Shown here piece by piece: positions 4,713-60,626 of a DNA stretch of 64,000 bases. Positions within the stretch are counted from its first letter, which is position 1; every line of letters starts with the position of its first letter. The stretch is from Pristiophorus japonicus (taxonomy: Eukaryota). The notes beneath the pieces are model-generated. The model ran no database searches, was not told the DNA's origin, and was given only the letters and a program-made list of their open reading frames with translations. The stretch covers positions 1,054,001 to 1,118,000 of the forward strand of contig NW_027251257.1 of assembly GCF_044704955.1 (NCBI RefSeq), given 5' to 3'. Position numbers and translations under genes: made by a program.

Positions 4713-4964
4713 CTGGTTCCCGTGCTCGGCTCCCGGGAGCTTTATCTGACGAGTGGGGAATTCCTGAAAAGCTCCGCTGAGCTGTTTCCTGGATTCTCTC
4801 TCATTGCAAATCAAACATCTGAAAATTATGGACCATTAAATAATTCATTACAGATAGCAGGTAGGTCAGAACTTACCCGGTGGAACTTAATGCAAACCAT
4901 GGTAGGGGGCACTGCTGGAAACAATGTTTCAATTACACGGAGAGTGTATTCTTTATATGTGTTC

Positions 4965-22054: not shown

Positions 22055-22320
22055 ACTTAAGAAAATAAGAAATAGGAGCAGGAGTAGGCCATTTGGCTTC
22101 TCGAGCGTGTTCTGCCATTCATAAAGATCATGGCTGATCTGATCTTGGCCTCAACCCCACTTCCCCGCCAGATCCCCATAACCCTTGACTCCCTTATCAT
22201 TCAAAAATCTGTATATCTCCACATTAAATAAATCCAATGAGCCAGACTTCACAGCTCTCTGAGATAGAGAATCCCAAAGATTCACGAACCCCTGAGAGAC
22301 GAAATTCCTCCTCATTTTCG
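22055..22320 (-). mobile_element. CR1 3' fragment
   Basis: MRRNFVSQGFVNLWDSL and CR1 3'UTR. Confidence 0.85.
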
Positions 22321-22326
22321 ATATAA

Positions 22327-23530
22327 TTAGTAGAGTGGACAAGTGAGAACCAGTGGATGTGCTATATTTGGAATTTCAAAAGGCTTTTGACAAGGTCCCA
22401 CACAAGAGATTAGTGTGCAGAATTAAAGCACATTGTATTAGGGGTAATGTATTGAAGTTGATAGGGAACTGGTTGGCAGACAGGATGCAAAGAATAGGAA
22501 TAAGCGAGTCCTTTTCAGAATGGCAGGCAGTGACTTGTGGGGTACAGCATGGTTCAGTGCTGGGACCCCAGCTATTCACAATATACATTAATGATTTAGA
22601 GGAAGGAATTGAATGTAATATCTCCAAGTTTGCAGATGGCACTAAGCTGGGTGGCAATGTGAGCTTTGAGGAGGATGCTAAAAGGCTGCAGGGTGAGGTG
22701 AGTGGGAAAATGCATGACATTTTGTGGATAAATGTGAGTTTATCCACTTCGGTGGCAAAAACAGGAAGGCAGAATATTTTCTAAATGGTGACAAATTAGG
22801 AAAAGGGGAGGTGCAACGAGACCTGGGTGTCATGGTACATCAGTCATTGAAAGTTAGCATGCAGGTACAGCAGGTGGTGAAGAAGGCAAATGGCATGTTG
22901 GCCTTCATAGCGAGGGGATTTGAGTATAGGAGCAGGGAGGTCTTACTGCAGTTGTACAGGACCTTGGTGAGGCCTCTCCTGGAATAGTGTGTTCAGTTTT
23001 TGGTCTCCTAATCTGAGGAAGGACATTCTTGCTATTGCAGGAGTGCAGCAAAGGAACACTAGACTGATTCCCTGGAAGACAGGACTGATATATAGGAGAT
23101 ATTGGATCGACTGGGCCTGTATTCACTGGAGTTTAGAATAATGAGAGGGGATCTCATACAAACATGTAGCATTCTGACGGGACTGGACAGGTTAGATGCA
23201 GGAAAAATGTTCCCGATGTTGGGGATGTCCAGAACCAGCGGTCACAGTATAAGGATAAGGGATAAGCCATGAAATCAGAGATGAGGAGAAACTTCTTCAC
23301 TCAGAGAGTTTTTAACCTGTGGAATTCTCTGCGCAGAGAGTGTTGATGACAGTTCCGTATATATATTGAATAGGGAGTTAGATATGGCCATTAAGGCTAA
23401 AGGGATGAAGTGGTATGGAAAGAAAGCCGGAAAGGGGTAATGAAGTAACTGATCATCCAGGATCTTATTGAAAGGTGGTACAGGCTCGAAGGGCCGAATG
23501 GTCTACTCCTGCACCTATTTTCTATATTTC
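22327..23530 (+). mobile_element. CR1 RT fragment to 3' end
   Basis: FQKAFDKVPHKRL, GSVLGPQLF, SKFADG, LYRTLVRP. Confidence 0.92.
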
Positions 23531-23539
23531 TTTGATTCT

Positions 23540-32700: not shown

Positions 32701-34680
32701 TTATTGCACACATCCCTTATTTCTTGTTTAATGCTGTCCCCAACCTCACTACTACTGTTTGGTGGTCTGTACACAACTCCCACTAACGTTTTATGCCTTT
32801 TGGAATTCCGCAGCTCCATCCATACCGATTCCACATCATCCATGCTAATGTATCTCCTACTACTGCATTAATTTCCTCTTTAACCATCAACGCCACCCCA
32901 CATCCTTTCCCTCTCTTCATATCCTTCCTAATGTTGAATGCCCCTGGATGTTGAGTTCCCAGCCTTGGTCATCATGGACCCATGTCTCCGTGATGCCAAT
33001 TACATCATGTCCGTTAAATGCTATCTGCGCAGTTAGTTCGTCCAACTTATTCTGAATACTCCTCGCATTGTGGCACAATCTTGTCATTTTAACACAATTT
33101 GCCCCTTTAGAATTTTTGTGAAATGTGGCCCTTTTTGTTTTTTGCCTTGGGTTTCTCTTCCCTCCACTTTACTATTCTCCTCGCTGTCTTTTGCTTCTGC
33201 CTCCATTTTATTTCCCTCTGTCTCACTGCATAGGTTCCCATCCCCCAGCCATGTTAGTTTAACTGCTCCCCAACAGCACTAGCAAACACTGCCCCTAGGA
33301 CATTGGTTCGGGTACTTCCCAGGTGCAGACAACCAATTCAAAATGTTTTCATAGCTAAATGCTCCAGTCCAAGAAACATCCTCGTTAATCTCCTCTGTTC
33401 GCTTTCGAGTGTAATCACATCTTTCCAGTACTGTCGTGACCAGAACTGCACGCAGTACGCTAGCTGTGGCCGACATAATGTTTTATACATTTCAAGCTTA
33501 ACCACCCTGCTCATGTCTTCTATGCCTCAGCTAATAAAGTCATATTTTCCGTACACATTCGTAACCACATTATCTACCTGGCCTGCTTCGGGATCCGTGG
33601 GTATGCACTCTAAAGTCCGTTTGTTGCTGTATACTTCTCAGTGTCCTGCACTTTAATGTGTATTCCCTAGCGATGTGAGCCCTTACCAAATCCATTTCTC
33701 AACACTTCTCTGGTTTGAAGTTAATTTGCGACTGTTCTGCCGTGCAGACCAGTTCATTTATAATATCCTGCAATCGACAGATTTCTTCTTCATTATCAAC
33801 CGGACGGCCGACTTTAGCATCATCTGCACACATCTGAAGCATACCCCCTACATTCAAGTCTAAATCAATGATATATGCCATAAAACTCAAGGGACCTATT
33901 AGTGAGCCCTGCTAAACTCCACTGCAAAAAAGACTTACAATCACAAAACCATCATGAACCAATATACTTTGCTACCTGCCTAAACTTGCCACTTTGCCCT
34001 GGATTCTCTGGGCCTTTAATTTCGTAACCAATCTGTCATTTGTGATATTATCAGCAGCCTTGCTACACTGGATCAAACGCACTTCCCCCATCAACCCTCC
34101 TTGTTAACGGCTCAAATGAATCAATCAAATAATTCAGTCACAGCCTTCGCTTATCAAATCCATGCTTACTGACCTTGATTAATCCATCTGCCTTATAAAT
34201 TGATTGATCCTTTCCATCAGTATGTTCCCATCACCGACTTTGTATTGACTGGCCTGTAATTACTGGGTCTCTCCCCTTGTCCTCTTTTAAACAAAGGTAT
34301 TACATTTGCAGAATCCCAGTCCTCAGAAGTCACACCTGTAGCCAGAGAGGATTGGAAATTGATTGTGAGAGCACCTGCAAATTCCCTTTTGCTTCTCTTA
34401 ACAGCCTGGGATACACGTCATCCGGGCTTGATGATGCAGACACTTTCAAAACTGCTCCGCCAATTATTATTTCCACTTTTACTATTTTTATGTATAATAA
34501 TATGTCACACTCCTCCTGATTGCACTGCCTGCAACTCACTTCGTCTTTTGAGAAAACAGATGTAAATTATTCATTAAGTGCACTACTCGCTTCTTATGTC
34601 TCCACAAACAGATTACCTTTATGGTCTCGAATAGACCCTACTCTTGCTTTAGTTACCCTCTTCCTCTTATGTATTTAATC
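29743..34680 (-). mobile_element. Older CR1-family LINE in two pieces (29743-30190 and 33330-34680), interrupted by a younger CR1
   Basis: SLEQRIMKKDLIE at the left junction is continuous with ...FSYENILNWL at the right junction; CADDAKVG and SPDDVYPRLLREA upstream. Confidence 0.75.
30191..33328 (-). mobile_element. Long CR1 LINE (endonuclease + RT), disrupted
   Basis: (agaaacat)3 tail; same family as 6891-10204; MGDFN, SDHN, DFQKPFD, RPRLEYC. Confidence 0.95.
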
Positions 34681-39800: not shown

Positions 39801-41230
39801 AGAACATAAGAACGGGAGAGTTTCATACGGCCGGTCAAGCCTGCTCCTTCATTCAATAAAATTATCACTGAAATTTGACATCAACAACACTTTCCTGCAA
39901 AATAACTTGATTCATTTACTGCAAAAAATAAGAACTTAATCTTCAGAACATAAGGAATAGATGCAGGATTAGACCATTCGGCCCCTCGAGCCTGCTCCGC
40001 AATTCAATAAGTTCAAGGCGGATCTAATCATGGAGTCAACTTCACTTCTTTGCCATCTCCTCAGAAACGTTCAATCCCTTAACGTTCTAAAATCTGTCGA
40101 TTTCCACCATAAATATATTCAATAACCCAGCATCCACTGCTCTCTGTGGAGAATTCCAAAATTTCATGACCTTCAGAGAAGAAATTCTTCCTCGATTCCT
40201 TTTTAAATGGGCGATACCTTATTCTGAAATAATGGCTCCTACTTCTAGATTCCCCCACGAGGGGAAACAACTCTCTGCCTCTACCGTGGCAAGTCCCCTC
40301 AGAATCTTAGACATCCAAATAAGTTCACCTCTCATTCTTTTTTACACCAGTGTGTACAGGCCCAACCTGCTCAAGGTTTCTGATAAGATAACCCCTTCAT
40401 CTCAGGAATCAAACTCGTGAACGTTATCTGAACTGCATCCACTGCAAGTTTATCGCTGCATAAATAACGATACCCAAATTGTATGCAGTACTGCGGGAGT
40501 GGTCTCACCAACGCCCTGTACAGTTGGAGCAGGACGTCACTACTGTTATATTCCATTCCCCTTGGTATCAAGGCCAATATTCAATTTGCCTTCCAATGTA
40601 TTGCTGTACCTGCATGCTAACTTTACGTGTTTCATGTGCCTTACGCAGATCAATCAGTAGTAGCGCAGCATTATTTAATTTCTCCACATTTAAATCCTAA
40701 TTTGCTTTTTTATTTTTCCTACCAAAGTGGATAACCTCACATTTTCCAACATTTTACTCCATCTGCCAAAGTGTTGCCCACTCACATAGCCTATCTATAA
40801 ACCTTTCTGTGTTATTTGCGTCGTCCTCACAACTTTCTTTCCCACCTACCGTTGCATCATCAGCAAATTTGGCTATGTTCCATTCTGTCTCTTCATCGAA
40901 GTAATCAATATCGATTGTAAATAGTTGAGGCCGCAGGAATGATAGCTGTGGCACCCCACTGTTTACTATCAGCCAAACTGAAAATAACCCATTTATTCCA
41001 AATCTGATTTCTGTTAGCTCGCCAATCTTCCATCCATCCGAATATATTACCCCACCCCGTGCCCTCCTATCTTCTGCAACAACCTTTTATATGGCACATT
41101 TTCAATGCCTTTAGGAAACCAAAATACACCACACCCACCCGTTCCGATTTATCCACCCTGTTCGTCAGATACTCAAAGAAAGGCAATAAATTTGTCAAAC
41201 ATGTTTTCGCTTTTCATAAAACAGTGCTGA
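39800..41230 (-). mobile_element. CR1 fragment(s)
   Basis: AKFADD, LYRALVRP, two successive CR1 3'UTR/tail copies at ~39800 and ~39945. Confidence 0.85.
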
Positions 41231-44200
41231 ATTTGCTTGAGTGCGTTAGGATTTTCGGAATTTCCTTGCAGACCAACTTATAGACGAGACTATAGATTAT
41301 AGAGACAATCCATCAGTTATTCTGGAATATACTCATCGATTGAAAATCCACAGTCCTGTGGAATAGAACATTCTAAAGTTCACAAGCCTCTGATTGAAGA
41401 AATGTCTTCTTACCTCAATCCTAATTGGACGACCTCTTATGCTAGGAATATGACCCTACTTCTACATGTACCATCACCGGAACACACTGACTTCACATCT
41501 AACCTGTGAAGCCCTTTATGAATTTTAAACGTTTCAGTGAGATCACCATTCTAAACACTAACAAATATCGCTCCATTTCATAAACAAGCAAATAGAGACA
41601 CAAATCCAAAACGCATGTCATCGACTACATAGATGTACAAATATAGCAGACGCATGGAAATATCGCCATCCATTCATAGTCACTGGATCAAAATCCTGGA
41701 ACTCCCTCCTTAACAGCACTGTGGGAATGCCTTCAGGATACTGACTGCTGCAGTTTAAATAGGCGACTCCCCACCACCTTCGAAAGGGCAATTATGGATG
41801 ATGCATCATCGCTGTCTTTGCCCACGGCAACCACATCCCATGATAGAATAGTAATCAAATGCTGCCCCAAATCTCCTCATAAGAGAGCACTCTCGACCCA
41901 GGAACTATTCTTTGTTGCACACCATCTATGGCAATTACGTCCTTCCTTTAGTCAGGAGACCAATATGTGCACAATACTCCAGCTGTGTCCTCATAAAAAT
42001 CCGATATAATTAAGCAAGACTTCCTCACTGATAAACTCTAAACCAATTGCAATAAAAGCTAACATAGTGTGGTATGATTTTAGAATTCCACGATAGTAAG
42101 ACACTGGCAGTACACAATGTAGGTGAGCAGCAATCCCATAGCCCGAGCAACAGTAGGATAGAGCTGTAATAATAAATTACATTACGTACACTGTTCCAAG
42201 AAATCGCATGGGACAGGATGTCCAGATGCGACAATGTAAAATCACAATCGTCTGAGACTGCGAGATGTGTACTTTTCTGTAACGGTAATAGACATTGTGT
42301 TTGAGATGTACAGCCCATACAATTCGAGCGAACTTGTATTAATGCATTGTCATCATGAGGTTTTTGATATAACGTTAACTTTCAGGAAATCTTGTGGTCA
42401 TGCGGATCAGGTGTGTCTCTGTTCAAAATAGATCAATGTAGCTGTATATTTGAAGTAAAAGAGAAAATGAGTGTGGGAAATCTTCAGTAATGACTCAATA
42501 AGATCGCTCTCACTGCAGGTATAGGATTTAAACGATTCTTTGACTTTCAACAGACTTTGAGTAGTGTATTCATTGGTTACACTATACAAAATGGCGTAGT
42601 CGACAGTATTCCCCTGGGAGACAAACATATGGCCGTTGACAGATCATCACCGAGTGAGTATTTTAAAATACCACGCTAAAAATCCGATGTACTCTGACGG
42701 AACGTGTTCGTCAACTAGGGAATCCGAACAGAGAGAATGCTGTGAAAGGAAAAAGACTCGTGGTAAACGTAAGTATGTCTGTGATGTGTATGTTGTATGT
42801 GTGGTTGTGTTTAGTTGACTAAGAATATCATATTGTTTGATTAAAAAAATTTGTATAGAATTGTGTTGCGATATTTGCTGGCAGGTTGGAAGACAATAAG
42901 AGATTGATATTTTAAACGGGATATATATGTTGTGTAATATATATATATTTTTATTGATACTCTTAATGCAGTGGTCCAACTGTGGTCTATCAAGGGCCGC
43001 CTGTCATGCGCACGGAAAGTACTGCCTAAGCAGTAGGCAGATAATTCTTATCTGTCTCTCAGTTCGGTCATTGGTGATGACTGGCAGCAGTAAAATAGAG
43101 TGGGGGCCTGAAGGGTCGCTCACCAATTTTACGCCGATGATCGTCAGGGACTTATAGACAGAATGATGAAGGGCAGTTGGGATCCCTCACAAGAGCCATC
43201 GATTCAGAAGGAAGGGTGGGAGCAATAAAATTTCTATAATTGTAGCACGACAGTTTCTAACATACAAAGAACTGACTAAACCAGGAATAGAAGAACTTAA
43301 GAAAATAAGAGAGGAAAATAAAAAAATGAAGAAAATGTTACAAGAACGTCGGGTGGGAAGATTTGGAGGTGGAAACATGGACGGAAACACAGATGTACCC
43401 ACGCCACATAGAGAAGTTGGGGAGAAAGCGCTGGAGTGCACATCAAGTGATGAAGAGGAACAGGCATCTCTGGCGCCTGTCAGAACCTTGGTAAATCACC
43501 AGCGAAATATAAAGGCAAGATATGCAGCGATCACACCATTATGGAAACAGGGAATTATCAAGGGCCTGCCTTACTGAAAGGCCCATCACGGAAATACATT
43601 TCTCTGGAGTTAAAGGAGACTACCGAAATGCATAACATGCATAACTGAGATATACACCAAATCGTAACGGCAAACTGTCCACGCGATATATGGAATACAT
43701 TGACAAATGCCCAACGGGGTAATGGATGGATTCCCGCATATAATGCTGATACTGACGTATGACAGAAGGCGTTAGATGTTTGTATCGTGACCGTCCACAC
43801 AGCCTTGGGCAATCCTACACCAAACTGTAGGTTCATACTATTAGTTACAGAAAAGAAAAATGAGAACAATAATGAAGATGGATAAAGGTAGTGGACATCA
43901 GATCGGTAATTCTCAGGACAACCTGAGCCAATCAAGGACGACAAGGCATATTGGAAAATGCTAAAAGATGGTTCCTCCAAGGAAATCAGAAATTTCAAAA
44001 ATTGTGGGTGATAGCCGCCGATACGCATGATGGGTTAATCATCTGGTCACGTCAAGTAGACAGTGATAGCAATGCAACACAGATAAAAAAGGAAGTGGCT
44101 GCAGCTACAACCCCCGGGAGTGGGTTAGTGGGACACGTAAAAAGGGATTGTGGCCAAAAGCAACCTACGCGGCCGCAAGTCCAATGCATTAATTGTCAAT

Positions 44201-44574: not shown

Positions 44575-45553
44575 TTAAGAACATAAGAAGAGTGAAAAGG
44601 AGTAGGCCTCCAGCCTGCTCCGCCATTCAATTAGATCATGGCTGATCTGATCACGTACTCAGCTCCACTTCCTCGCCCGCTCCCTATAACCCCTTATCCC
44701 CTCATCTTTTAAGAAACAGTCTATTTCTGTGCTAATTTTAATCAATATCCCGGATTCCACAGATCTCTGAGACAGCATATTCCACAGAATTACAACTCTC
44801 TAAGAGAACAAATTTCTCCTCATCATTGTTTTAAATGGGTGGCCCCTAATTCTAAGATCGTGCCCCCTAGTTCTATTCTCCCCCGTCAGTGCAAACATCC
44901 TCTCCACATCCATCTTTTCGAGCTCGCTCATAATCTTATACATTCACCTCTCATTCCTGTGAATTCCAATGAGTAGAGATCCAACCTACTCAACCTATCC
45001 TGATAATCTACCCCCTCATCCGTGGAATCAACCAATGTACCTTCCCTGAACTGCCTCCAATGCAAGTATATCATTTCATAACTATGGAAACCAAAACTGC
45101 CCGGAGTATTCCAGGTGTGGCCTCAACAATACCCAATACAGCTGTAGTAAGACTTCCTGCTGTTAAACATCTTCTCCTTTGAAATAAAGGCCAACATACC
45201 ACTGGCCTTCGTGATCATTGCTGTACCGGCATACTATCATTTGTGTTTCATGCACAAGTACCCAAGTCCCGCTGTACTGCGGCAATTTGCGATCTTTCTC
45301 CATTTAAATAATAACTCGCTCTTTGACTTTTTTCTGTGAGATGCATGACCTCACACTTTTCAACATTATAGTCCATCTGACAAAATTTGGCCCACAAACT
45401 TAGACAGTCAATGTCCTTTTGCAGATTTTTAGTATCCGCCTCACATGATGCTTTTCCTCCCAATTTTGTATCGTCAGCAAACTTTGCTATGTTACACTCA
45501 GCCCTTTCTCCCAAGGCATCAACATAGATTGTAAATAGATGGGGCCCCAACTG
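44575..45553 (-). mobile_element. CR1 3' fragment inserted in the old ERV pol
   Basis: GPHLFTIY...AKFADDTKLGG...QRDLG; aagaacat tail. Confidence 0.9.
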
Positions 45554-46633: not shown

Positions 46634-47095
46634 TGTCGAGGAAATATTTAGCTTAAATTAACTCAGGCGGAGACTTTCAGAAGTGCACTTCGAGAGAATT
46701 TATTTTAAAAAGCAAGATATATCTCGGAGAGCCTGCTTGGACCGTACCAAGGCAAAACTCTGTCGTACAAGCAAATTGCACTTATCTTTATACAGAAATT
46801 GAATACAGAAAAAGAAAAATAATCTTATTCATTAGTCCCACGAGTACAAAGGTCGTCTCGGGAGGTACACACTCGATCTGTCCTTGCATAGTTTCTCTCT
46901 GTTCACAGTGTGATAAGCAAAGCAAAAGGAGACTCCCTTTTAATACCAGATGGTCACCTAATTGCATCTCTAAGTTTCAAGGCTAAAAAGCGTGGCTATT
47001 TTTCTAGTCTTATTATTTCTTTAAGCATAGCAAAAAACAGAATTTAACCCTTCCCTCTAAATTAAGCCAGGTGTTCATAGATTCTTTCTTACACA
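46634..47095 (-). repeat. 3' LTR
   Basis: TG...CA termini; polypurine tract AAGGAAGGAAT adjacent at 47096-47106. Confidence 0.95.
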
Positions 47096-48225
47096 ATTCC
47101 TTCCTTGTTGATCTTTTTATTTTTTAGATCAACACAATTTCCTGTATTCTCTTCTTGAGCAAAAGGGGGTGTATACCCTTCAGGATAGTGTCGCATTTGG
47201 AGATATCCGTCTTCATCAACCTTTTCCTCTAAGCGACTTAACCTTCCTTTCATGTATATACCTTTTCTTTCTATTTCGGAGAGCAGGCCTATTACTTGAC
47301 TAATTACATTTTTTAATTTTATCCACATTCCGCAAAGGATTATTAATAATACAAGCATAACCACACCTACGATTACTATGGGGTGTATAGCAAGCTTCAG
47401 TACTGCTGTAATCCTTCATCCCAGGCATTTCTGATCTTTATATCTTCCCTACCAGTCCCCCGACGGCCTGGATTTTATTTTGTAGGGTCTCAATATCCAT
47501 GGAGTTCAATGCTCCTATTCCTGCTCCCACTCCACCTAACACAGTCTCTAATACATCCCGTTTCTTTCTTTGGGGTCTTTCTTTTTCAAAAGATACCTTA
47601 ACACTGGTTGTGTGGCAACCATCTTTTTTCTTTGGGGTATATTTAATTCGTATTGTTAGATTTAATACACCTGGGGATCTTACCACTGGGATGCAAGTGG
47701 TCAGTATCCTTTTTAGATGTCCCGGGTCCCGGTCTTCTGGGTGGTCAGATTCTTTTACTGACCATTTTACCACAAATGGGTCTCCTCCATTCACCGGGGT
47801 GTTATTCATGCACAACATCCGCTGCCCTTCTACCATACTTGTAAAAGAATAACTACCTTTTCTCCTGTCCGGCCTTCCTATGTACCCTCATCTCTTGTTT
47901 TTCCCTGTGCTCAGGGTACACTTCATCCACACATCGGCCTTGTATTCTATGAACAACCGATACCCTTTCCCCAATATAAACTGGAATTCCCCTCTTTCTT
48001 CCTTCATTCCACATGCCTCACATCGTGCCGTAAAATTCCATACTTTACAACTTTGGCCTACTGGGCATATAAAATTGCCTTGCTGCCTTATACTATTACT
48101 TCTTTCCCATACCATATTTTTCCTTCTTTTAGGACTTCTTCCTCCTGCCGGGAGTTCCCTGTCGCTAAAATGATCAGTATACCTAACGTCCATTTATAAT
48201 TTTTCCAAGAGTCCCTTCCCATCTT
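47089..48225 (-). pseudogene. env: ERV env, unit 1, frameshifted and internally deleted
   Basis: Signal peptide WTLGILIILATG, furin site RKKR, fusion peptide DVLETVLGGVGAGIGALN, TM anchor HPIVIVGVVMLVLLIILCGMW. Confidence 0.9.
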
Positions 48226-48439
48226 CCCTTTCTTGTTTGTTTCTATACTACTCTTGAAATAAGTTGTTACAATAACAACACGTCCACACGATAGTAACAG
48301 TGACCCAAATAATAAAGGCCCAAACTGGCACACAAATGAGCTCTGACATCCGTCCGTGAATTTTGGGCAATATTTTCAAGTCCAAATATTTAATACAAGA
48401 GCAGGTACAGTTCTTCAGCTAGAAGATGGCTGTTTTCTT

Positions 48440-51400
48440 AGTCGGGCGACCGTAGTACGTCCTGGTTCAATGCCTTTTACTTCGGCTGTAATTCGTCGGG
48501 GAAATAATATTTACAGCGGGTTGCATGCACCCAGTTCGGGTGCTTTTCCAACTTCAAAGCGGTTCGTGTTGTGAGAATTATCTGATACGGTCCTTTCCAC
48601 CTAGGAGAAAAGGATTCTTTATTTAATGTTTTTACTAACACTTGATCTCCAGGTCTGAAAGGGTGCATATTTCCTTCCGACGGGGGCACCTGTGTCTGCT
48701 TTATTTGTTCATGCAGACTTCTTGCTATTTCACACATGGCCTGAGCATACTTTAGTGATTTTTCATCATTCCAAATTAATGCTATTTTTTCATCTGACAG
48801 TGGTGGTTTTACGCCAGTAGGCATTGGTCTTCCCAATAAGGCTTCATGTGGTGTCAAATCAGTGTTTCGGTTTTTCTGGTTTCTCATTGTATACAATACT
48901 AATGGTAAGGCTTCTGGCCACTTCAGTCCAGTCTCCTGATATACCTTGGTAAGGGTAGATTTTATTATCCCATTTACTCTTTCTACCATTCCCGAGGACT
49001 GTGGCTGATATGGTATATGTAACTTCCACAGGAACCCGAACGCTTCTGCAAGGTTTTGCACTATTTTTCCGGTGAAGTGGGTTCCCCTGTCACTGTTGAT
49101 TCCCATAGGTATCCCATATCTTGGTACTATTTCTTTAAATAGAATTTTTACTACTGTCCGGGCATTTTCAAAGGGCATACTTGGTTGGGGTAGATGATCA
49201 TATCCAGCAGGTGTTTTACCTCTGTTATTTTGTTGACAAATTTGGCATGTTCTAGCAACTTTCTCAATTACTACTGTTATTCCTGGTGCATACCACTGTG
49301 CATTAACAGCATGTATCATCCCTCCTTTGCCCATGTGAGCCTGACCGTGTGCTAGGCGTGACAGGGGCAAAAATAGAGATCTAGGCAAACAGTTCGCCCA
49401 TCAGGGTGATACCAAATGTCGTTTTTTAAAAAACAACCCTGGTTTTCCCAAGTTCTTCCTTCCTGCATGGTAACTTGTTGTTGGGCTGTTTTAAGTTGTT
49501 GGATGTCAAGTACCTGTGGAGGGGAGACTGAGACTGCTTGAAGGCAGTCTGCCTGTGCCGAAGCGGCCTGTTTGGCTGCTTCGTCAGCCCTCCTATTTCC
49601 TACTGATACTCCATCCTCACCGGTTGTGTGAGCTGCTCGTTTGATAACGGCTACCTTACTTGGCAACTGAATGGCGTCTAATAGATTAAGCACCAGTTGA
49701 GAGTGTTTAATATGCTTTCCACCAGAGGTGATAAAGCCGCTGTTTTTCCACAGTTGTCCAAAATCATGGACCACCCCGAATGCATATCTAGAATCAGTAT
49801 AGATATTAGCAGTATGATCTTTAGCTATTATACAAGCTCTAGTGAAGGCAAACAATTCAGCAGCCTGAGCCGAGGTTCCAGGAGGCAGGGCGAATGCTTC
49901 AACAGTTTCGTGGGGATTTACAATAGCATAGCCTGCCAAAAACAAATCATCCGACGGCCTATATGATGATCCATCCGTATAGAGAATAAGATCAGATTGT
50001 CCATGGGTTCTGTGAGCAAATCTGGTCTTGGTAAGGCGGCTACTTCCACCGTTAACAGACAATCATGCTGGTCTGGATCCTCTACTTCTTTAGTAGGAAG
50101 AAAGGTGGCTGGGTTCACTACCGGTGTACGTCGAAAGGTATAGTTAGGGTGTGACAGCAGTAATACTTCATAACCTGTTCTTCTAGACGCTGTAAAGTGT
50201 TGTGTGGCAGCTGAATTCAAAAGTAATAACTCAGCATGGGCTGTAATGACAGTACATGGATAGTCCAAAACAATGGATACCGACTTCTCCACCATGACCG
50301 CAGTAGCAGCTACAGCACGTAGACATGCTGACATTCCCCTTACTACTGGAGGCAGCAAAACCGAATAATAAGCAACTGGTCTATTTCCCCCACCATGTTC
50401 TTGGGTTAGTACTGCTGTTGCAAATACTGCGGGGCTTTCGGTGTATCCTTGGGGCAACCTGGTCCATGTGTACTGCTGCTTCTTGTGGGTGAAAGCAAAC
50501 AGATACTGACTTTCTTGATTTAACGGGATAGAGTAAAAAGCTGAACACATGTCTATTACAGTAAAGACAGTTGCTGTTGGTGGTATAGCAGATAGTATAA
50601 TGTTGGTGTTCGGTACCACAGGGGTGATAGGACTACTATCTTATTAATAGCTCTCAGATCTTGCACAAATCTCCATTCATTCGGCCTATTAACCTTTGGT
50701 ATGGGAAATATCGGAGTGTTACACGGGCTCTGTGTCTTTTCTAAAACTCCTTGTTCCAACAATGCAGAAATAACTGGCTCTATCCCATTTTCTGCCTCTG
50801 GAGGCAGTCTGTAATGCCTAATGCTTGGTAACACGGCGTTCTTTATCAATTGTACCCGATGGGGTACTGCAGAATGTACTTGCCCAACATGATTCTTATG
50901 CTTTGCCCAAAGTTCAGAAGATACTTGATTCAATGCCATTGGCAGCTTAGGGCTTGGTTGTTCCGGGGGTTGCTGTTTTTCAAAAGTGGAGGCATGATTT
51001 TTACCTTTCCACTGGAGAATCCCCCTGTTGTGGGTGATAAATTCTATCTGAACATTTTGCAATTTTATTACTGCCCAATGTTGATAGCCGTGTTGCTGTT
51101 TTTCTCTTTCTATTCGTACAATCATCAGACCCATATCTTTAGGTTTCGCTGGCGGTTTAACAGCCAATGTCAGATGGGGTGTCGAGTTCGCTTCTCTAAA
51201 CCGCTGTTGCTCTAAGGGTGTCAAATCGATGGCTACCCCCAATCTTTCTGGTCCAAAATAAATGCTTCGACTATTTCTTCTGTATTTAAAAAGGATTGTA
51301 CCAAACATTGGTAAGTTCCAGCTTTTTGTCGAGTGTACCAGGCTGTACAGTGAAGCTGAACTGCCTCAAAGCTTGTCAAAATTATATACATCAATTCTTC

Positions 51401-51942
51401 AGTATTAGAGTCAAATTTAGCTTTTAAGTTTTGTATAACTTCATGTATCAAGGGGGAATAGAAGTTGCCAATCAATTGCCAACAATAGAGGGCAGCCTTT
51501 TCTTTGTTATCCTCCCTTTTGTCTTTTTAATCTCATTAAAGAACTGATGAATATTATTTGGAGGGAGCTCCATGTACATTCCTTCCTTTGTGCTATAAAT
51601 TGTGGCTCCTAGTTTGCACAAAGTCTGTCTTCCCAATAAAGGGAGCGGTGTTGTTTTAGAGACTTTCAAAGTCTCATCATTAACTGATTGTCCTTCAATT
51701 ATCAATTTGGTAGGTTCAGATAAAAATTCTTTCATGGGGATACCGGCCACACCCATACTTAAGACGGTGGTGTTGCTTACAGGTAATCCCACAGAGGATG
51801 GTACAGAAGACATAGTAGCACCGGTATCCACCAGGAATTTCACATAAGTGTCTCCTACTTTTACTACTGCCAGAGGGTTTTCTTGTATGTCTGCCGATAA
51901 GCGGAGGGCTGCCGCCTGTACCACTAAGCCTCCGGGGCATCC
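48440..51942 (-). pseudogene. pol: ERV pol, unit 1: protease - 2H phosphoesterase - partial RT - tether - RNase H - partial integrase
   Basis: FLVDTGA; LHCTA...PHLTLA; WRFVQDLRAIN, YTWTRLPQGYTESP; YTDGSS...SAQAAEL...YTDSRY...NRRAD; SDRGTHF...SSGMVER; GPY. Confidence 0.93.
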
Positions 51943-53053
51943 CTATGCTGATTATTCTGTGCCTGTCCTCGTCCCTTTTGATGATTTACTGACCTGCTGT
52001 TTTAGCCATATTTTCCTTATAGGTAAATAGTCCCTCTCTATCCATGTTAGCCAGTACTGTAACTGTCTCTTTCCAACTTTTTCCTTGCCAGTCCAAAACC
52101 CTTATTTTGTATGTTCTTGCTTGTTGTGGCAACATACAATTTAACAAGGTTTGCACTGCCAAAGGTTCATTTTGATCCATTAGTATTCCTGCATGCTCGT
52201 CCCAACTATTTTTCCATCTGCCTGCAAAATCTATTCTTCTGCTTTCTGCAAGCAGCGGGTGACTTCCCCTATATCTCCATGCTTTTTAGCTCCCTTTAAT
52301 AAATGGTACAGGTTTGCTCAAGCCAGTTGTGAAAGGCTACTGGCTTCTTAACAGGATTAGGGGCAGCTGATATCATATCCCGAGCTTCTCCCGGTGTCCA
52401 GGGCTTTAGGACAGCCGTTGTTCTGATCATTACACGGGGGCTTGTGTCGTGGGGGTAGTGGAGGAATCGGCCTGTCTTATCCAGCTGAGCGGCCACTATT
52501 TCTATAATCTCCTGCCAATCATCCGGCTTGGTGGTTGGAAGACGGGGGTATAAGCCGACAGGGGAAGCGGTCATAACCGGGGCACTCGGGGGGGCTGTAA
52601 GAGGGAGGGGGCTTCTCCTTACCCTCCTCCTCTTTCTTTTTATTTTTAGGGGCTGGTGCCTCTTTGCCACCTCTGTCCATTTTTTAAAACAATTCTCCAT
52701 ATAATCTTTATCCCAACTGGGGTCCCCTGTCCCATTTTTGGTGGTCTGTCTCCATTCCTCAATTAAGGACAATTTAAAACTTCCTCCATATGGCCAATCC
52801 CCATCAGACCAACCGTACAAATCGCTGCTAAACGTTACCGCGTATCTGTCGTCTCCTGTGTCTTTAATTACAGTGTCCGCCGGCGAGCCGGGCGGCACAA
52901 TGGGATCTCCTACCTTCTCTCGCTGCTTTACTACCTTACGATTCTTTTCTCAGTCTTAGGATGTACTTTCATTCTTTCAGTTGAGAGGTCGTCCTTCTTT
53001 CCTTTTCTAGGAGCTGGGCGCGAGCGCCCTGCTCGACTAGAGCCGTTTCCCAT
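51943..53053 (-). pseudogene. gag: ERV gag, unit 1 (unit 2 ~58710-59818), frameshifted, nucleocapsid knuckle absent
   Basis: MGNGSS myristoylation start, WPYGGSF matrix motif, PPSY and LYPRL late domains, KPWTPGE capsid start. Confidence 0.88.
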
Positions 53054-53374
53054 TCTTCCGGGTGCAACGTCTCGCGATCTTTTCTGAAATGAGAGTTTAG
53101 TGCAATACTACAAAATATACAATAATTTACAAAGCGCTCACCGGTGTTCTCTTTTCTGCTCAGCTCGGGGTCTCCTTTTGCCTTTTTGTTATTTTAGCTT
53201 CTTAGCGGTAGCTACCTTATGCCTCACCCCCTCCAGGGGATCTCGGCGGCCCGTCCCCCTTTCAGCTAGGACGGCCTAGGCACCTTCCTCCTTTCAGCTA
53301 GGAAGGTCCTTAAAATTCCTCTTTTCTCTGTAAAAGTTAAATGTAGTTCTTTTGGATCTCGTTTTTTTTTAGAG

Positions 53375-53393
53375 ATCCTGCCGGACTACGCCA
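53375..53393 (-). promoter_or_regulatory. Primer binding site, tRNA-Ser (second copy at 60140-60158)
   Basis: TGGCGTAGTCCGGCAGGAT; complementary to the vertebrate tRNA-Ser 3' end ATCCTGCCGACTACGCCA with a 1-nt insertion. Confidence 0.85.
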
Positions 53394-53398
53394 GAATC

Positions 53399-53861
53399 TG
53401 TCGAGGAAATATTTAGCTTAAATTAACTCAGGCGGAGACTTTCAGAAGTGCACTTCGAGAGAATTTATTTTAAAAAGCAAGATATATCTCGGAGAGCCTG
53501 CTTGGACCGTACCAAGGCAAAACTCTGTCGTACAAGCAAATTGCACTTATCTTTATACAGAAATTGAATACAGAAAAAGAAAAAGAATCTTATTCATTAG
53601 TCCCGCGAGTACAAAGGTCGTCTCGGGAGGTACACACTCGATCTGTCCTTGCATAGTTTCTCTCTGTTCACAGTCTGATAAGCAAAGGCAAAAGGAGACT
53701 CCCTTTTAATACCAGATGGTCACCTAATTGCATCTCTAAATTTCAAGGCTAAAAAGCGTGGCTATTTTTCTTGTCTTATTATTTCTTTAAGCATAGCAAA
53801 AAACAGAATTTAACCCTTCCCTCTAAATTAAGCCAGGTGTTCATAGATTCTTTCTTCCACA
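53399..53861 (-). repeat. Shared central LTR
   Basis: PPT on one side and PBS on the other. Confidence 0.95.
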
Positions 53862-54990
53862 ATTCCCTCCTTGTTGATCTTTTTATTTTTTAGATCAACA
53901 CAATTTCCTGTATTCTCTGCTTGAGCAAAAGGGGGTGTATACCGTTCAGGATAGGGTCGCATTTGGAGATATTCGTCTTCATCAACCTTTTCCTCTAAGC
54001 GACTTAACCTTCCTTTCATGTATATAACTTTTCTTTCTATTTCAGAGAGCAGGCATATTACTTGACTAATTACATTTTTTAATTTTATCCACATTCCGCA
54101 AAGGATTATTAATAATACAAGCATAACCACACCTACGATTACTATGGGGTGTATAGCAAGCTTCAGTACTGCTGTAATCCTTCATCCCAGGCATTTCTGA
54201 TCTTTATATCTTCCCCTACCAGTCCCCCGACGGCCTGGATTTTATTTTGTAGGGTCTCGATATCCATGGAGTTCAATGCTCCTATTCCTGCTCCCACTCC
54301 ACCTAACACAGTCTCTAATACATCCCGTTTCTTTCTTTGGGGTCTTTCTTTTTCAAAAGATACCTTAACACTGGTTGTGTGGCAACCATCTTCTTTCTTT
54401 GGGATATATTTAATTCGTATTGTTAGATTTAATACACCTGGGGATCTTACCACTGGGATGCAAGTGGTCAGTATCCTTTTTAGATGTCCCGGGTCCCGGT
54501 CTTCTGGGTGGTCGGATTCTTTTACTGACCATTTTACCACAAATGGGTCTCCTCCATTCACCAGGGTGTTATTCATGCACAACATCCGCTGCCCTTCTAC
54601 CATACTTGTAAAAGAATAACTACCTTTTCTCCTGTCCGGCCTTCCTATGTACCCCATCTCTTGTTTTTCCCTGTGCTCAGGGTACACTTCATCCACACAT
54701 CGGCCTTTTATTCTATGAACAATCGATACCCTTTCCCCAATATAAACTGGAATTCCCCTCTTTCTTCCTTCATTCCACATGCCTCACATCGTGCCGTAAA
54801 ATTCCCTACTTTACAACTTTGGCCTACTGGGCATATAAAATTGCCTTGCTGCCTTATACTATTACTTCTTTCCCATACCATATTTTTCCTTCTTTTAGGA
54901 CTTCTTCCTCCTGCCGGGAGTTCCCTGTCGCTAAAATGATCAGTATACCTAACGTCCATTTATAATTTTTCCAAGAGTCCCTTCCCATCT
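53828..54990 (-). pseudogene. env: ERV env, unit 2; tail runs into the LTR
   Basis: As unit 1; stop codon at 53830-53828 lies inside the central LTR. Confidence 0.9.
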
Positions 54991-55203
54991 TCCCTTTCTT
55001 GTTTGTTTCTATACTAATCTTGAAATAAGTTGTTGCAATAACAACACGTCCACATGATAGTAACAGTGACCCAAATAATAAAGGCCCAAACTGGCACACA
55101 AATGAGCTCTGACATCCGTCCGTGAATTTTGGGCAATATTTTCAAGTCCAAATATTTAATACAAGAGCAGGTACAGTTCTTCAGCGAGAAGATGGCTGTT
55201 TTC

Positions 55204-58200
55204 TTAGTCGGGCGACCGTAGTACGTCCTGGTTCAATGCGTTTTCCTTCGGCTGTAATTCGTCGGGGAAATAATATTTACAGCGGGTTGCATGCACCCAG
55301 TTCGGGTGCTTTTCCAACTTCAAAGTGGTTCGTGTTGTGAGAATTATCTGATACGGTCCTTTCCACCAAGGAGAAAAGGATTCTTTATTTAATGTTTTTA
55401 CTAACACTTGATCTCCAGGTCTGAAAGGGTGCATATTTCCTTCCGACGGGGGCACCTGTGTCTGCTTTATTTGTTCATGCAGACTTCTTGCTATTTCACA
55501 CATGGCCTGAGCATACTTTAGTGATTTTTCATCATTCCAAATTAATGCTATTTTTTCATCTGACAGTGGTGGTTTTACGCCAGTAGGCATTGGTCTTCCC
55601 AATAAGGCTTCATGTGGTGTCAAATCAGTGTTTCGGTTTTTCTGGTTTCTCATTGTATACAATACTAATGGTAAGGCTTCTGGCCACTTCAGTCCAGTCT
55701 CCTGACATAACTTGGTAAGGGTAGATTTTATTATCCCATTTACTCTTTCTACCATTCCCGAGGACTGTGGCTGATATGGTATATGTAACTTCCACAGGAA
55801 CCCTAACGCTTCTGCAAGGTTTTGCACTATTTTTCCGGTGAAGTGGGTTCCCCTGTCACTGTTGATTCCCATAGGTATCCCATATCTTGGTACTATTTCT
55901 TTAAATAGAATTTTTACTACTGTCCGGCCATTTTCAAAGGGCATACTTGGTTGGGGTAGATGATCATATCCAGCAGGTGTTTTACCTCTGTTATTTTGTT
56001 GACAAATTTGGCATGTTCTAGCAACTTTCTCAATTACTACTGTTATTCCTGGTGCATACCACTGTGCATTAACAGCATGTATCATCCCTCCTTTGCCCAT
56101 GTGAGCCTGACCGTGTACTAGGCGTGACAGGGGCAAAAATAGAGATCTAGGGCAAACAGTTCGCCCATCAGGGTGATACCAAATGTCGTTTTTTATAAAA
56201 CAACCCTGGTTTTCCCAAGTTCTTCCTTCCTGCATGGTAACTTGTTGTTGGGCTGTTTTAAGTTGTTGGATGTCAAGTACCTGTGGAGGGGAGACTGAGA
56301 CTGCTTGAAGGCAGCCTGCCTGTGCCGAAGCGGCCTGTTTGGCTGCTTCGTCAGCCATCCTATTTCCTACTGATACTTCATCCTCACCAGTTGTGTGAGC
56401 TGCATATTTGATAATGGCTACCTTACTTGGCAACTGAATGGCGACTAATAGATTAAGCACCAGTTGAGAGTGCTTAATATGCTTTCCACCTGAGGTGATA
56501 AAGCCTCTGTTTTTCCACAGTTGTCCAAAATCATGGACCACACCGAATGCATATCTAGAATCAGTATAGATATTAGCAGTATGATCTTTAGCTATGATAC
56601 AAGCTCTAGTGAGGGCAAACAATTCAGCAGCCTGAGCCGAGGTTCCAGGAGGCAGGGCGAATGCTTCAACAGTTTCGTAGGGATTTACAATAGCATAGCC
56701 TGCCAAAAACAAATCATCCGACGGCCTGTATGATGATCCATTCGTATAGAGAATAAGATCAGAATTGTCCATGGGTTCTGTGAGCAAATCTGGTCTTGGT
56801 AAGGTGGCTACTTCCACCGTTAACAGATAATCATGCTGGTCTGGATCCTCTACTTCTTTAGTAGGAAGAAAGGTGGCTGGGTTCACTACCGGTGCACGTC
56901 GAAAGGTATAGTTAGGGTGTGACAGCAGTAATACTTCATAACCTGTTCTTCGAGACGCTGTAAAGTGTTGTGTGGCAGCTGAATTAAAAAATAATAACAC
57001 AGCATGGGCTATAATGACAGTACGTGGATGATCCAAAACAATAGGTACCGACTTCTCCACCATGACCGCAGTAGCAGCTACAGCACGTAGACATGCTGAC
57101 ATTCCCCTTACTACTGGAGGCAGCAAAACTGAATAATAAGCAACTGGTCTATTTCCCCCACCATGTTCTTGGGTTAGTACTGCTGTTGCAAATACTGCGG
57201 GGCTTTCGGTGTATCTTTGGGGCAACCGGGTCCATGTGTACTGCTGCTTCTTGTGGGTGAAAGCAACAGATACTGACTTTCTTGATTTAACGGGATAGAG
57301 TAAAAAGCTGAACACATGTCTATTACAGTAAAGACAGTTGCTGTTGGTGGTATAGCAGATAGTATAATGTTGGTGTCCGGTACCACAGGGGTGATAGGAC
57401 TACTATCTTATTAATAGCTCTCAGATCTTGCACAAATCTCCATTCATTCGGCCTATTAACCTTTCGTATGGGAAATATCGGAGTGTTACACGGGCTCTGT
57501 GTCTTTTCGAAAACTCCTTGTTCCAACAATGCAGAAATAACTGGCTCTATCCCATTTTCTGCCTCTGGAGGCAGTCTGTACTGCCTAATGCTTGGTAACA
57601 CGGCGTTCTTTATCAATTGTACCCGATGGGGTACTGCAGAATGTACTTGCCCAACATGATTCTTATGCTTTGCCCAAAGTTCAGAAGATACTTGATTCAA
57701 TGCCATTGGCAGCTTAGGGCTTGGTTGTTCCGGGGGTTGCTGTTTTTCAAAAGTGGAGGCATGATTTTTACATTTCCACTGGAGAATCCCCCTGTTGTGG
57801 GTGATAAAGTCTATCTGAACATTTTGCAATTTTATTACTGCCCAAGGTTGATAGCCGTGTTGCTGTTTTTCTCTTTCTATTCCTACAATCATCGGACCCA
57901 TATCTTTAGGTTTCGCTGGCGGTTTTACAGCCAATGTCAGATGGGGTGTCGAGTTCGCTTCTCTAAACCGCTATTGCTGTAAGGGTGTCAAATCGATGGC
58001 TACCCCCAATCCTTCTGGTCCAAAATAAATGCTTCGACTATTTCTTCTGTATTTAAAAAGGATTGTACCAAACACTGGTAAGTTTCAGCTTTTTGTCGAG
58101 TGTACCAGGCTGTACAGTGAAGCTGAACTGCCTCAAAGCTTGTCAAAATTATATACATCAATTCTTCAGTATTAGAGTCAAATTTAGCTTTTAAGTTTTG

Positions 58201-58709
58201 TATAACTTCATGTATCAAGGGGGAATATAAGTTGCCAATCAATTGCCAACAATAGAGGGCAGCCTTTTCTTTGTTATCCTCCCTTTTGTCTTTTTAATCT
58301 CATTAAAGAACTGATGAATATTATTTGGAGGGAGCTCCATGTACATTCCTTCCTTTGTGCAATAAATTGTGCCTCGTAGTTTGCACAAAGTCTGTCTTCC
58401 CAATAAAGGGAGCGGTGTTGTTTTAGAGACTTTCAAAGTCTCATCATTAACTGATTGTCCTTCAATTATCAATTTGGTAGGTTCAGATAAAAATTCTTTC
58501 ATGGGGATATCGGCCACACCCAAACTTAAGACGGTGGTGTTGCTTACAGGTAATCCCACAGAGGATGGTACAGAAGACATAGTAGCACCGGTATCCACCA
58601 GGAACTTCACATAAGTGTCTCCTACTTTTACTACTGCCAGAGGGTTTTCTTCTATGTCTGCCGATAAGCGGAGGGCTGCCGCCTGTACCACTAAGCCTCC
58701 GGGGCATCC
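55204..58709 (-). pseudogene. pol: ERV pol, unit 2 (includes 703-aa open tether-RH-IN ORF 57315-55204)
   Basis: Same motifs and same deletions as unit 1; RNase H first Asp changed to Asn (YTNGSS). Confidence 0.93.
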
Positions 58710-60163
58710 CTATGCTGATTATTCTGTGCCTGTCCTCGTCCCTTTTGATGATTTACTGACCTGCTGTTTTAGCCATATTTTCCTTATAGGTAAATAGTCC
58801 CTCTCTATCCATGTTAGCCAGTACTGTAACTGTCTCTTTCCAACTTTTTCCTTGCCAGTCCAAAACCCTTATTTTGTATGTTCTTGCTTGTTGTGGCAAC
58901 ATACAATTTAACAAGGTTTGCACTGCCAAAGGTTCATTTTGATCCATTGGTATTCCTGCATGCTCGTCCCAACTATTTTTCCATCTGCCTGCAAAATCTA
59001 TTCTTCTGCTTTCTGCAAGCAGCGGGTGACTTCCCCTATATCTCCATGCTTTTTAGCTCCCTTTAATAAATGGTACAGGTTTGCTCAAGCCAGTTGTGAA
59101 AGGCTACTGGCTTCTTAACAGGATTAGGGGCAGCTGATATCATATCCCGAGCTTCCCCCGGTGTCCAGGGCTTTAGGACAGCCGTTGTTCTGATCATTAC
59201 ACGGGGGCTTGTGTCGTGGGGGTAGTGGAGGAATCGGCCTGTCTTATCCAGCTGTGCGGCCACTATTTCTATAATCTCCTGCCAATCATCTGGCTTGGTG
59301 GTTGGAAGACGGGGGTATAAGCCGACAGGGGAAGCGATCAAAACCGGGCCACTCGGGGGGCTGTAAGAGGGAGGGGGCTTCTCCTTACCCTCCTCCTCTT
59401 TCTTTTTATTTTTAGGGGCTGGTGCCTCTTTGCCACCTCTGTCCATTTTTTAAAACAATTCTTCATATAATCTTTATCACAACTGGGGTCCCCTGTCCCA
59501 TTTTTGGTGGTCTGTCTCCATTCCTCAATTAAGGACAATTTAAAACTTCCTCCATATGGCCAATCCCCATCAGACCAACGGTACAAATCGCTGCTAAATG
59601 TTACCGCGTATCTGTTGTCTCCTGTGTCTTTAATTACAGTGTCCGCCGGCGAGCTGGGTGGCACAATGGGATCTCCTACCTTCTCTTGCTGCTTTACTAC
59701 CTTACGATTCTTTTCTCAGTCTTAGGATGTACTTTCATTCTTTCAGTTGAGAGGTCGTCCTACTTTTCTTTTCTAGGAGCTGGGCACGAGCGCCCTGCTG
59801 GACTAGAGCCGTTTCCCATTCTTCCGGGTGCAACGTCTCGTGATCTTTTCTGAAATGAGAGTTAGGACAATCCTACAAAATATACAATAATTTACAAAGT
59901 GCTCACCGGTGTTCTCTTTTCTGCTCAGCTCGGGGTCTCCTTTTGCCTTTTTGTTATTTTAGCTTCTTAGCGGTAGCTACCTTATGCCTCACCCCCTCCA
60001 GGGGATCTCGGTGGCCCGTCCCCCTTTCAGCTAGGACGGCCTAGGCACCTTCCTCCTTTCAGCTAGGAAGGTCCTTAAAATTCCTCTTTTCTCTTTAAAA
60101 GTTAAATTTAGTTCTTTTGGATCTCGTTTTTTTTTAGAGATCCTGCCGGACTATGCCAGAATC

Positions 60164-60626
60164 TGTCGAGGAAATATTTAGCTTAAATTAACTCAGGCGG
60201 AGACTTTCAGAAGTGCACTTCGAGAGAATTTATTTTAAAAAGCAAGATATATCTCGGAGAGCCTGCTTGGACCATACCAAGGCAAAACTCTGTCGTACAA
60301 GCAAATTGCACTTATCTTTATACAGAAATTGAATACAGAAAAAGAAAAATAATCTTATTCATTAGTCCCGTGAGTACAAAGGTCGTCTCGGGAGGTAGAC
60401 ACGCTATCTGTCCTTGCATAGTTTCTCCCTGTTCACAGTCTGATAAGCAAAGGCAAAAGGAGACTCCCTTTTAATACCAGATGGTCACCTAATTGCATCT
60501 CTAAGTTTCAAGGCTAAAAAGCGTGGCTATTTTTCTAGTCTTATTATTTCTTTAAGCAGAGCAAAAAACAGAATTTAACCCTTCCCTCTAAATTAAGCCA
60601 GGTGTTCATAGATTCTTTCTTCCACA
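60164..60626 (-). repeat. 5' LTR
   Basis: Followed on the minus strand by the PBS at 60158-60140. Confidence 0.95.

Follow-up and report, generated by a model that had tools for sequence, protein, structure and literature searches.

A 64,000-nucleotide stretch of the Pristiophorus japonicus genome (contig NW_027251257.1, positions 1,054,001 to 1,118,000; hereafter the window, in whose own numbering all feature positions are given) carries a two-unit endogenous retrovirus (ERV) with an insert between the protease and the reverse transcriptase (RT). A sequence-only reading of this DNA took the insert for a 2H phosphoesterase, a class of enzyme defined by paired HxT motifs. The locus therefore raises the question of whether such a domain is present, to which 2H family it belongs, and what the intact protein did for the virus.

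The unit 1 domain sits on the minus strand between the protease DTGA motif (51828) and the RT WRFVQD motif (50675), and unit 2 carries a second copy. Their features are as follows.

51009 to 51493, minus strand: CNPase-like 2H phosphoesterase domain of unit 1, divided between two frames at a small deletion (near 51263) and, near 51525, thrown out of the protease frame
51341 to 51355, minus strand: first motif LHCTA, with its His at 51352; equivalent to CNPase H230-x-T232 and followed by the aromatic at the F235 position
51129 to 51179, minus strand: second motif PHLTLA and the CNPase-type beta5-alpha7 loop, with the His at 51176; the loop ends in an invariant Gly (KPKDMG)
57776 to 58260, minus strand: 2H domain of unit 2, with the same frameshift as unit 1 and a stop in the second lobe

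Both HxT motifs were found where the sequence-only reading had placed them, in unit 1 and in unit 2 (His at 58119 and 57943), as was the frameshift it had noticed between them: the two unit 1 His lie 176 nt apart in different frames, with IYFGPERLGVAIDLTP in between. Its account of about 150 extra codons with motifs about 59 codons apart was right as to the insert but needs correction as to size, the domain being about 160-170 codons long with motifs 62 codons apart in unbroken copies. The window holds the CNPase-like 2H domain only in broken form, and it cannot be made whole there. HxT motif pairs at a spacing of 55-70 codons occur 13 times in the 64-kb window (10 on the plus strand and 3 on the minus strand), so the motif pair alone is not beyond chance; the domain is held to be real because of homology, fold and selection. 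Survival of the His motifs despite the deletion of catalytic segments elsewhere had been taken as a hint of function. It carries no such weight, because in a copy standing about 2% from its family both His and both Thr would persist under neutrality with a probability of about 0.83, and the domain itself is frameshifted. As a dead copy, the window locus adds little alone, and its value lies in the family-level evidence.

A 17-domain profile matched 23 PDB sequences at E ≤ 10, all of them CNPase/RICH (best E 3.7e-4), and none of NS2, Acb1, AKAP18 or VP3-CTD was among these 23 matches. Two AlphaFold2 models of an unchanged natural copy had predicted local distance difference test (pLDDT) scores of 62 (model 1) and 63 (model 2); the N-lobe lay at 50-60 in both, and the second lobe of model 2 at 82-92. 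Foldseek comparison of model 1 with the PDB returned CNPase/RICH for 44/44 among the matches listed. Model 2 aligned with CNPase crystal structures at Z 8.1-9.0 (one at 7.9), with a root-mean-square deviation (rmsd) of 3.5-4.0 over about 150 residues, and with one NMR model at 6.6. The fungal tRNA-ligase cyclic phosphodiesterase (CPD) domain of Trl1 followed at Z 5.2, and other 2H enzymes lay at 2.1-2.9 (NS2 2.6-2.7, Acb1 2.5-2.8, AKAP18 2.4, plant Appr>p CPDase 2.2, VP3-CTD 2.1). A wide search of 48,161 chains recovered the bilobed 2H fold with a best Z of 8.2 (rmsd 3.8, 150 aligned) for a model with a pLDDT of only 63, and 11 of the 12 rows with Z ≥ 2 were 2H enzymes. The nearest named Atlas clusters were tRNA-ligase CPD (scores 0.95-0.96).

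Sequence comparison thus identifies the insert as a 2H phosphoesterase domain inside the Gag-Pol of a shark class I ERV, and profiles together with predicted models place it as CNPase-like, with its closest relationship to CNPase. We name it CNPase-like, not CNPase, because the Pfam cut-off is not reached and there is no N-terminal P-loop domain. The original proposal of a 2H domain between protease and RT is upheld by profile (CNPase/RICH), fold (Z 8-9) and conservation, and the profile and AlphaFold/Foldseek comparison suggested along with it recovered a 2H fold, of the CNPase type.

The comparison with CNPase extends to its active-site surroundings. According to PMC4643303, the beta5-alpha7 loop is unique to CNPase and helix alpha7 is absent from other 2H enzymes; CNPase holds the base between F235 and V321, the V321A and R307Q changes raise KM with kcat kept, the cleft fits NADP+, and the physiological substrate of CNPase itself is unclear. 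Positions in CNPase numbering were inferred for the viral domains from alignments. Aligned with the host CNP gene, the viral domain shows no gap between the second His and the alpha7 Gly, a stretch that spans the beta5-alpha7 loop (hhalign E 5.4e-5), and model 2 has a helix at 122-139 after the second motif (block pLDDT 86-92). In a table of 30 domains, from which 7 proteins had first been dropped (duplicates, cluster mates, one spurious match and one without the first motif), the alpha7 Gly is present in 30/30. Four rows lack a parsed first motif and one is mis-parsed; an aromatic (Y/F) equivalent to F235 occurs in 24 of the 25 correctly parsed rows. The host CNP gene (C21:4660793-4668531) has introns inside the catalytic domain, and the viral domain has none.

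Other copies in the shark genome preserve the arrangement that is broken in the window. A protein search of the genome, with 150 of 1193 candidates scored, gave matches that were all 93-100% identical. Among the first 72 loci fetched, 21 hold the protease, both motifs and the RT start in one natural frame, with the motifs at the 62-codon spacing; the examination of genomic copies proposed by the sequence-only reading accordingly found protease, 2H domain and RT joined in a single frame. Searches with distant relatives revealed further groups, so that at least three lineages of this genome carry the domain, both motifs being present in all: family A (with a sister subfamily), family B and a third lineage. 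Family B, which together with the third lineage (L033) makes up loci L033-L052 and L073-L112, is large and partly very young, and the domain of both is about 32-39% identical to that of family A.

Outside the shark, phmmer over 1.8 billion representatives gave 19 matches at E ≤ 0.001, and a domain profile search gave 13 longer and 3 near-length proteins. The named relatives are, by their labels, teleosts and newts (Austrofundulus, Sarotherodon, Corythoichthys, Takifugu, Hypomesus, Anguilla, Pleurodeles and Lissotriton), and their domain stands after a retroviral protease and/or before an RT, in the same order as in the shark element. A scan of viral contigs found no relative. Loss of the His motifs in other copies had been named as a sign that the domain was spurious; both motif His are invariant in 17/17 aligned domains (16 relatives, 18-30% identical to the shark domain). 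A wider alignment of 28 rows keeps the second His throughout and the first in at least 90%; one further relative has Arg in place of the first His, and another has a degraded motif. Motif spacing is 61-63 residues across relatives, and both motifs fall on beta strands in both models. On this sequence evidence, the 2H domain is conserved across fish, amphibian and shark ERVs.

The domain tree and the RT tree (14 rows, unnamed and host-labelled, midpoint root) are broadly alike, which fits inheritance of the domain together with Pol. In the RT tree, family A and a Lissotriton-labelled newt ERV form a group (98/96 support) that leaves out shark family B, a grouping that hints at a cross-class host jump.

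The domain was under purifying selection while the virus replicated. For a sister-subfamily pair of natural copies, the ratio of nonsynonymous to synonymous change (dN/dS) was 0.24 (0.14-0.37) in the domain, 0.14 in the protease and 0.05 in the RT; by the dN/dS measure that had been recommended, the domain is constrained in this pair. In a column-wise count, made after 18 tandem or duplicate loci and a partial locus had been set aside, variants common to at least three copies gave ratios of 0.58 in family A (71 copies, p 0.018) and 0.40 in family B (59 copies, p 0.0003), and singleton variants were near neutral (0.84 and 0.87). Constraint is concentrated in the core between and around the motifs: shared amino-acid changes in family A stand near the neutral ratio in the N-lobe (29:9) and C-tail (20:8) but not in the core (36:31). 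The dN/dS between families A and B was saturated and was not used.

By analogy with host CNPase, we think it somewhat probable that the intact enzyme turned 2',3'-cyclic phosphates into 2'-phosphates by hydrolysis, acting on RNA ends or on free nucleotides. Such hydrolysis is likelier than cleavage of 2',5'-oligoadenylate (2-5A) or cyclic GMP-AMP (cGAMP) because of the kinship with CNPase and because the CNPase loop is kept in register. Between the two options of the sequence-only reading, CNPase kinship thus favours its second, RNA-end processing, over its lead, an immune nuclease. Pol encodes the domain in a frame shared with the protease before it and the RT after it, and a lone in-frame stop at the end of gag precedes all three. 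In an intact virus the domain would have been synthesised within Gag-Pol by stop read-through and packaged with the RT, and would then have been either cut out by the protease or left on the RT. Its substrates might have been the cyclic-phosphate ends that metal-independent host RNases leave on primer tRNA, genomic RNA or cleavage products, and opening such ends could have healed them or removed a damage signal. The domain itself would go back to a CNP mRNA of the host, taken up a single time in the ancestry of these ERVs of fish, sharks and amphibians.

Several results weigh against a CNPase-like hydrolase of common descent, as to both its kinship and its activity. Single-sequence searches of the PDB and Pfam returned no 2H family, one weak row aside; the Pfam CNPase family (PF05881) reached at best 15.6 bits against a cut-off of 25, matching 1/17 members, and 2_5_RNA_ligase2 matched weakly in 2/17. 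Both models are middling, in the N-lobe above all, and model 1 reached a Z of only 6.4 in the wide search. The V321 position is non-Val in 30/30 domains (K 14, H 7, R 6, Q 2 and C 1) and the R307 position is Arg in 0/30, a changed pocket that may have come with a different substrate. Support in the domain tree is poor and an outgroup is lacking, so that a single capture is no more than presumed. Constraint on the domain is weaker than on the RT, one family-B pair gave a dN/dS of 1.09 with a very wide, open interval, and the selection counts are biased by the picking of copies for likeness to the domain. The 12 motif columns were not significantly spared among shared changes in family A (2/12 versus 70/156, p 0.07) or in family B (3/12 versus 44/156, p 1).

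The altered pocket is central to a bolder proposal, to which we give a small but real chance. Here a captured host CNP domain, CNP being an antiretroviral factor, had its pocket rebuilt (V321 made basic, R307 lost) into a virion-borne enzyme with a new substrate, namely immune-signalling RNA ends or 2-5A and cyclic dinucleotides, and proved useful enough for some lineages to retain it in Pol and for walleye viruses to retain it in Env. If true, this would be a nucleotide-level retroviral immune countermeasure from a 2H clade not known for such a role.

Second to cyclic-phosphate hydrolysis, and improbable, is a reading in which the domain was re-tuned from a CNPase ancestor into an immune-messenger nuclease acting on 2-5A or cyclic dinucleotides in the manner of NS2, VP3-CTD and Acb1. 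The base pocket is systematically unlike that of CNPase, with a basic residue at V321, and the domain evolves faster than the RT (0.24 versus 0.05), as host-facing proteins often do. The host genome also has an OAS gene cluster (C8:218.42-218.60 Mb, 16 exon matches above the cut-off), and 2-5A is targeted by some RNA-virus 2H domains (PMC9503650). The lead interpretation of the sequence-only reading, an anti-2-5A or anti-cGAMP nuclease, nevertheless loses ground to the fold comparison, since NS2, VP3-CTD, AKAP18 and Acb1 reach only Z 2.1-2.8, far under the 8-9 of CNPase, although these are weak scores on a middling model. These enzymes are likewise missing from the 23 profile matches, and the CNPase-type loop and helix are retained. 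In a term search, PMC10835031, on viral capture of anti-OAS phosphodiesterases (PDEs), made no mention of retroviruses, fish, CNP or shark. The same residues are also kept in teleost ERVs, and most teleosts are not known to possess OAS. A genome search for RNase L with PF06479 (11 candidates scored) gave 3 matches at 2 loci, all IRE1-like by motif, which does not establish the absence of RNase L from the host.

Two further explanations are doubtful to a similar degree. The first makes the domain an enzyme of ADP-ribose cyclic phosphate (ADPr>P). CNPase and macro domains are listed as extra genes of teleost ERVs (PMC4977317), PMC9503650 connects 2H domains to ADPr>P processing, and NADP+ fits the CNPase cleft (PMC4643303). 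Against this, the plant Appr>p CPDase reached only the Z of 2.2 given above, and Pfam scans of the protease-to-RT stretch and of the 17 relatives, which covered those only, found no macro domain. The second makes the domain a decoy or competitor of host CNP, a restrictor of retroviral assembly at the membrane, with catalysis secondary. CNP binds HIV-1 matrix protein (MA) and inhibits particle formation (PMC7471995). In a viral structure library the best matches (E 1e-3 to 7e-2) were proteins of walleye retroviruses that carry the label Envelope polyprotein, so the budding membrane may be a further site of a related domain. A decoy fits poorly with an active site conserved in its His, Thr, aromatic and Gly at an overall identity of 18-30%, and with shared family A changes that are near neutral in the N-lobe and C-tail and not in the core. 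Finally, it is very improbable that the insert is a neutral spacer whose HxT motifs are accidental, or a relic without catalytic activity. HxT pairs do arise by chance and the window copy itself is dead, but the invariant His of 17/17 divergent domains, purifying selection in two families and the fold match rule this out for the lineage and leave it true of the window copy only.

The element around the domain is a tandem provirus of two units at 46634-60626, with three long terminal repeats (LTRs); its units are 98% identical to each other, the outer LTRs differ by 10 mismatches in 462, and a TGCAG target-site duplication stands at both ends. Its remaining features are as follows.

46634 to 47095, minus strand: 3' LTR, followed by the target-site duplication TGCAG
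47100 to 48430, minus strand: env remnant, with RKKR of furin type at 47569; about 1 kb is deleted near 47408
48477 to 50062, minus strand: RNase H and integrase remnant, frameshifted, with TDGS at 49978 and the segment of the first catalytic Asp gone near 49165
50410 to 50930, minus strand: RT remnant, with WRFVQD at 50675 and LPQGY at 50457; about 0.5 kb including YADD gone near 50420
51598 to 51885, minus strand: retroviral aspartyl protease, with DTGA at 51828 (Pfam RVP E 6.8e-9 on a natural copy)
51945 to 53053, minus strand: gag remnant, with three deletions and, at its end, an in-frame TAG 38 codons before the protease Asp (a family-wide junction)
53399 to 53861, minus strand: middle LTR, common to both tandem units, followed by the primer-binding site
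60164 to 60626, minus strand: 5' LTR, preceded by TGCAG, with 10 mismatches in 462 against the 3' LTR

The primer-binding site next to the middle LTR is putatively of the tRNA-Ser type, with one extra base. Relative to a longer natural copy, unit 1 is without three gag pieces, about 0.5 kb of the RT, the first catalytic segment of the integrase and about 1 kb of env. The loss of RT and integrase catalytic segments (YADD and the integrase core) that had been read from the window is therefore real, with four more large deletions in gag and env. Small frameshifts also occur in unit 1, of which two fall at the 2H domain or within it. A 98%-identical protein in UniRef carries the label Pristiophorus japonicus.

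Among solved structures, the family RT is nearest to the murine leukaemia virus (MLV) type (E 8e-46), followed by foamy virus (7e-28) and HIV (1e-10). An MLV-nearest RT, a shared gag-pol frame interrupted by one stop only, LTRs, a primer-binding site and a target-site duplication together mark the element as a class I (gamma/epsilon-like) ERV. The single in-frame TAG 38 codons before the protease Asp occurs in 59 of 67 family-A loci, and several have a zinc knuckle upstream in the same frame; because of these two features, the sequence indicates that Pol of family A was most likely made by stop read-through. In family B the junction is TGA in 45 of 51 loci, as against TAG in family A. Read-through of this kind is established for class I retroviruses.

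The RT catalytic segment missing from the window is also absent from 14 of 71 de-duplicated family-A copies at dispersed places (L001, L006, L007, L010, L013, L014, L017, L018, L053, L057, L062, L067, L068 and L116), which suggests a non-autonomous subfamily spread in trans. These 14 copies hold too few shared variants and gave no significant selection signal. At C3:232.76-232.92 Mb (L019-L030) an ERV derivative is repeated in tandem, about every 5.35 kb, and 16 of 40 listed DNA matches fall in this array. Elsewhere in the window are dispersed repeats at 65-85% identity (6884-10017, 30191-33329, 19731-20540, 22320-23539, 39947-41233 and 44607-45549), some with FADD RT motifs (40867 and 45481) and, by that motif, presumably old long interspersed element (LINE) copies. 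There is also a 32-bp minisatellite of about 18 copies (4140-4713) and a stop-free frame of 297 codons on the plus strand (25-918).

Retroviral Pol seldom has additional enzymes. That purifying selection maintained a CNPase-derived one in sharks, bony fish and newts suggests a life-cycle step, so far unexplained, in which RNA ends or nucleotide signals would be involved. With its altered pocket and reduced size, the viral domain also offers a natural probe of the CNPase substrate question. Taken at the family level, the evidence shifts the expected answer from 2-5A toward cyclic phosphates, for an annotation that is 20 years old. Our literature search, which covered mainly openly available papers, found no functional study of a retroviral 2H domain, in agreement with the earlier statement that the activity of such domains is uncharacterised.

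The kind of domain is already known from fish retroviruses, and the shark copy is a further member whose function is predicted only. Among the epsilon-like ERVs of ray-finned fish, some have a CNPase or macro domain (PMC4977317, citing Basta 2009). PMC9503650 (citing Mazumder 2002) lists 2H domains in fish retroviruses and walleye dermal sarcoma virus, and suggests that at least a part of the 2H domains of RNA viruses process cyclic ends. In a term search, PMC4422223, on elephant-shark ERVs, did not mention phosphodiesterase or CNP. The CNPase-like/2H domains of teleost epsilon-like ERVs and walleye dermal sarcoma virus belong to the same domain family as the shark domain, but the host of the shark element is a cartilaginous fish and three lineages of one genome carry the domain. 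The best viral structure matches were the walleye proteins A4GTG3 and Q9WHI8 and the unnamed Q2VF30. The walleye proteins are labelled Envelope polyprotein, not Pol as in the shark element; if label and match are right, a related domain lies in Env of walleye viruses.

With the catalytic domain of vertebrate CNPase (mouse 2xmi/2yoz, human 1woj, goldfish RICH 2i3e; PF05881) the viral domain shares the two HxT motifs, the F235 aromatic, the beta5-alpha7 loop length, the alpha7 Gly and a predicted fold at Z 8-9. It differs in an identity of only about 13-16%, a shorter length (about 165 aa), a basic or polar residue at V321, the absence of R307 and a Pfam score below the cut-off; it is preceded by a protease and has no N-terminal P-loop domain, whereas host CNP has GLPGSGKST. 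The CPD of fungal Trl1 (6u05; PF08302), which opens RNA 2',3'-cyclic phosphate, is the second-best structural family (Z 5.2) and holds the nearest named Atlas clusters, but its identity is 8% and the virus has no ligase or kinase partner. By its title, a study in the reference list of PMC4643303 reports that CNP can stand in for a dead CPD of trl1 in yeast. Mouse hepatitis virus (MHV) NS2 (4z5v), rotavirus VP3-CTD (4rpt), AKAP18 (3j4r) and Acb1 (7t26/7t27) belong to the same 2H superfamily, the viral and phage ones having been captured, but they reach only Z 2.1-2.8 to the viral domain and are described without helix alpha7, which the viral domain keeps. The shark domain and the viral 2',5'-PDE and Acb1-type nucleases are likely to be of separate origin.

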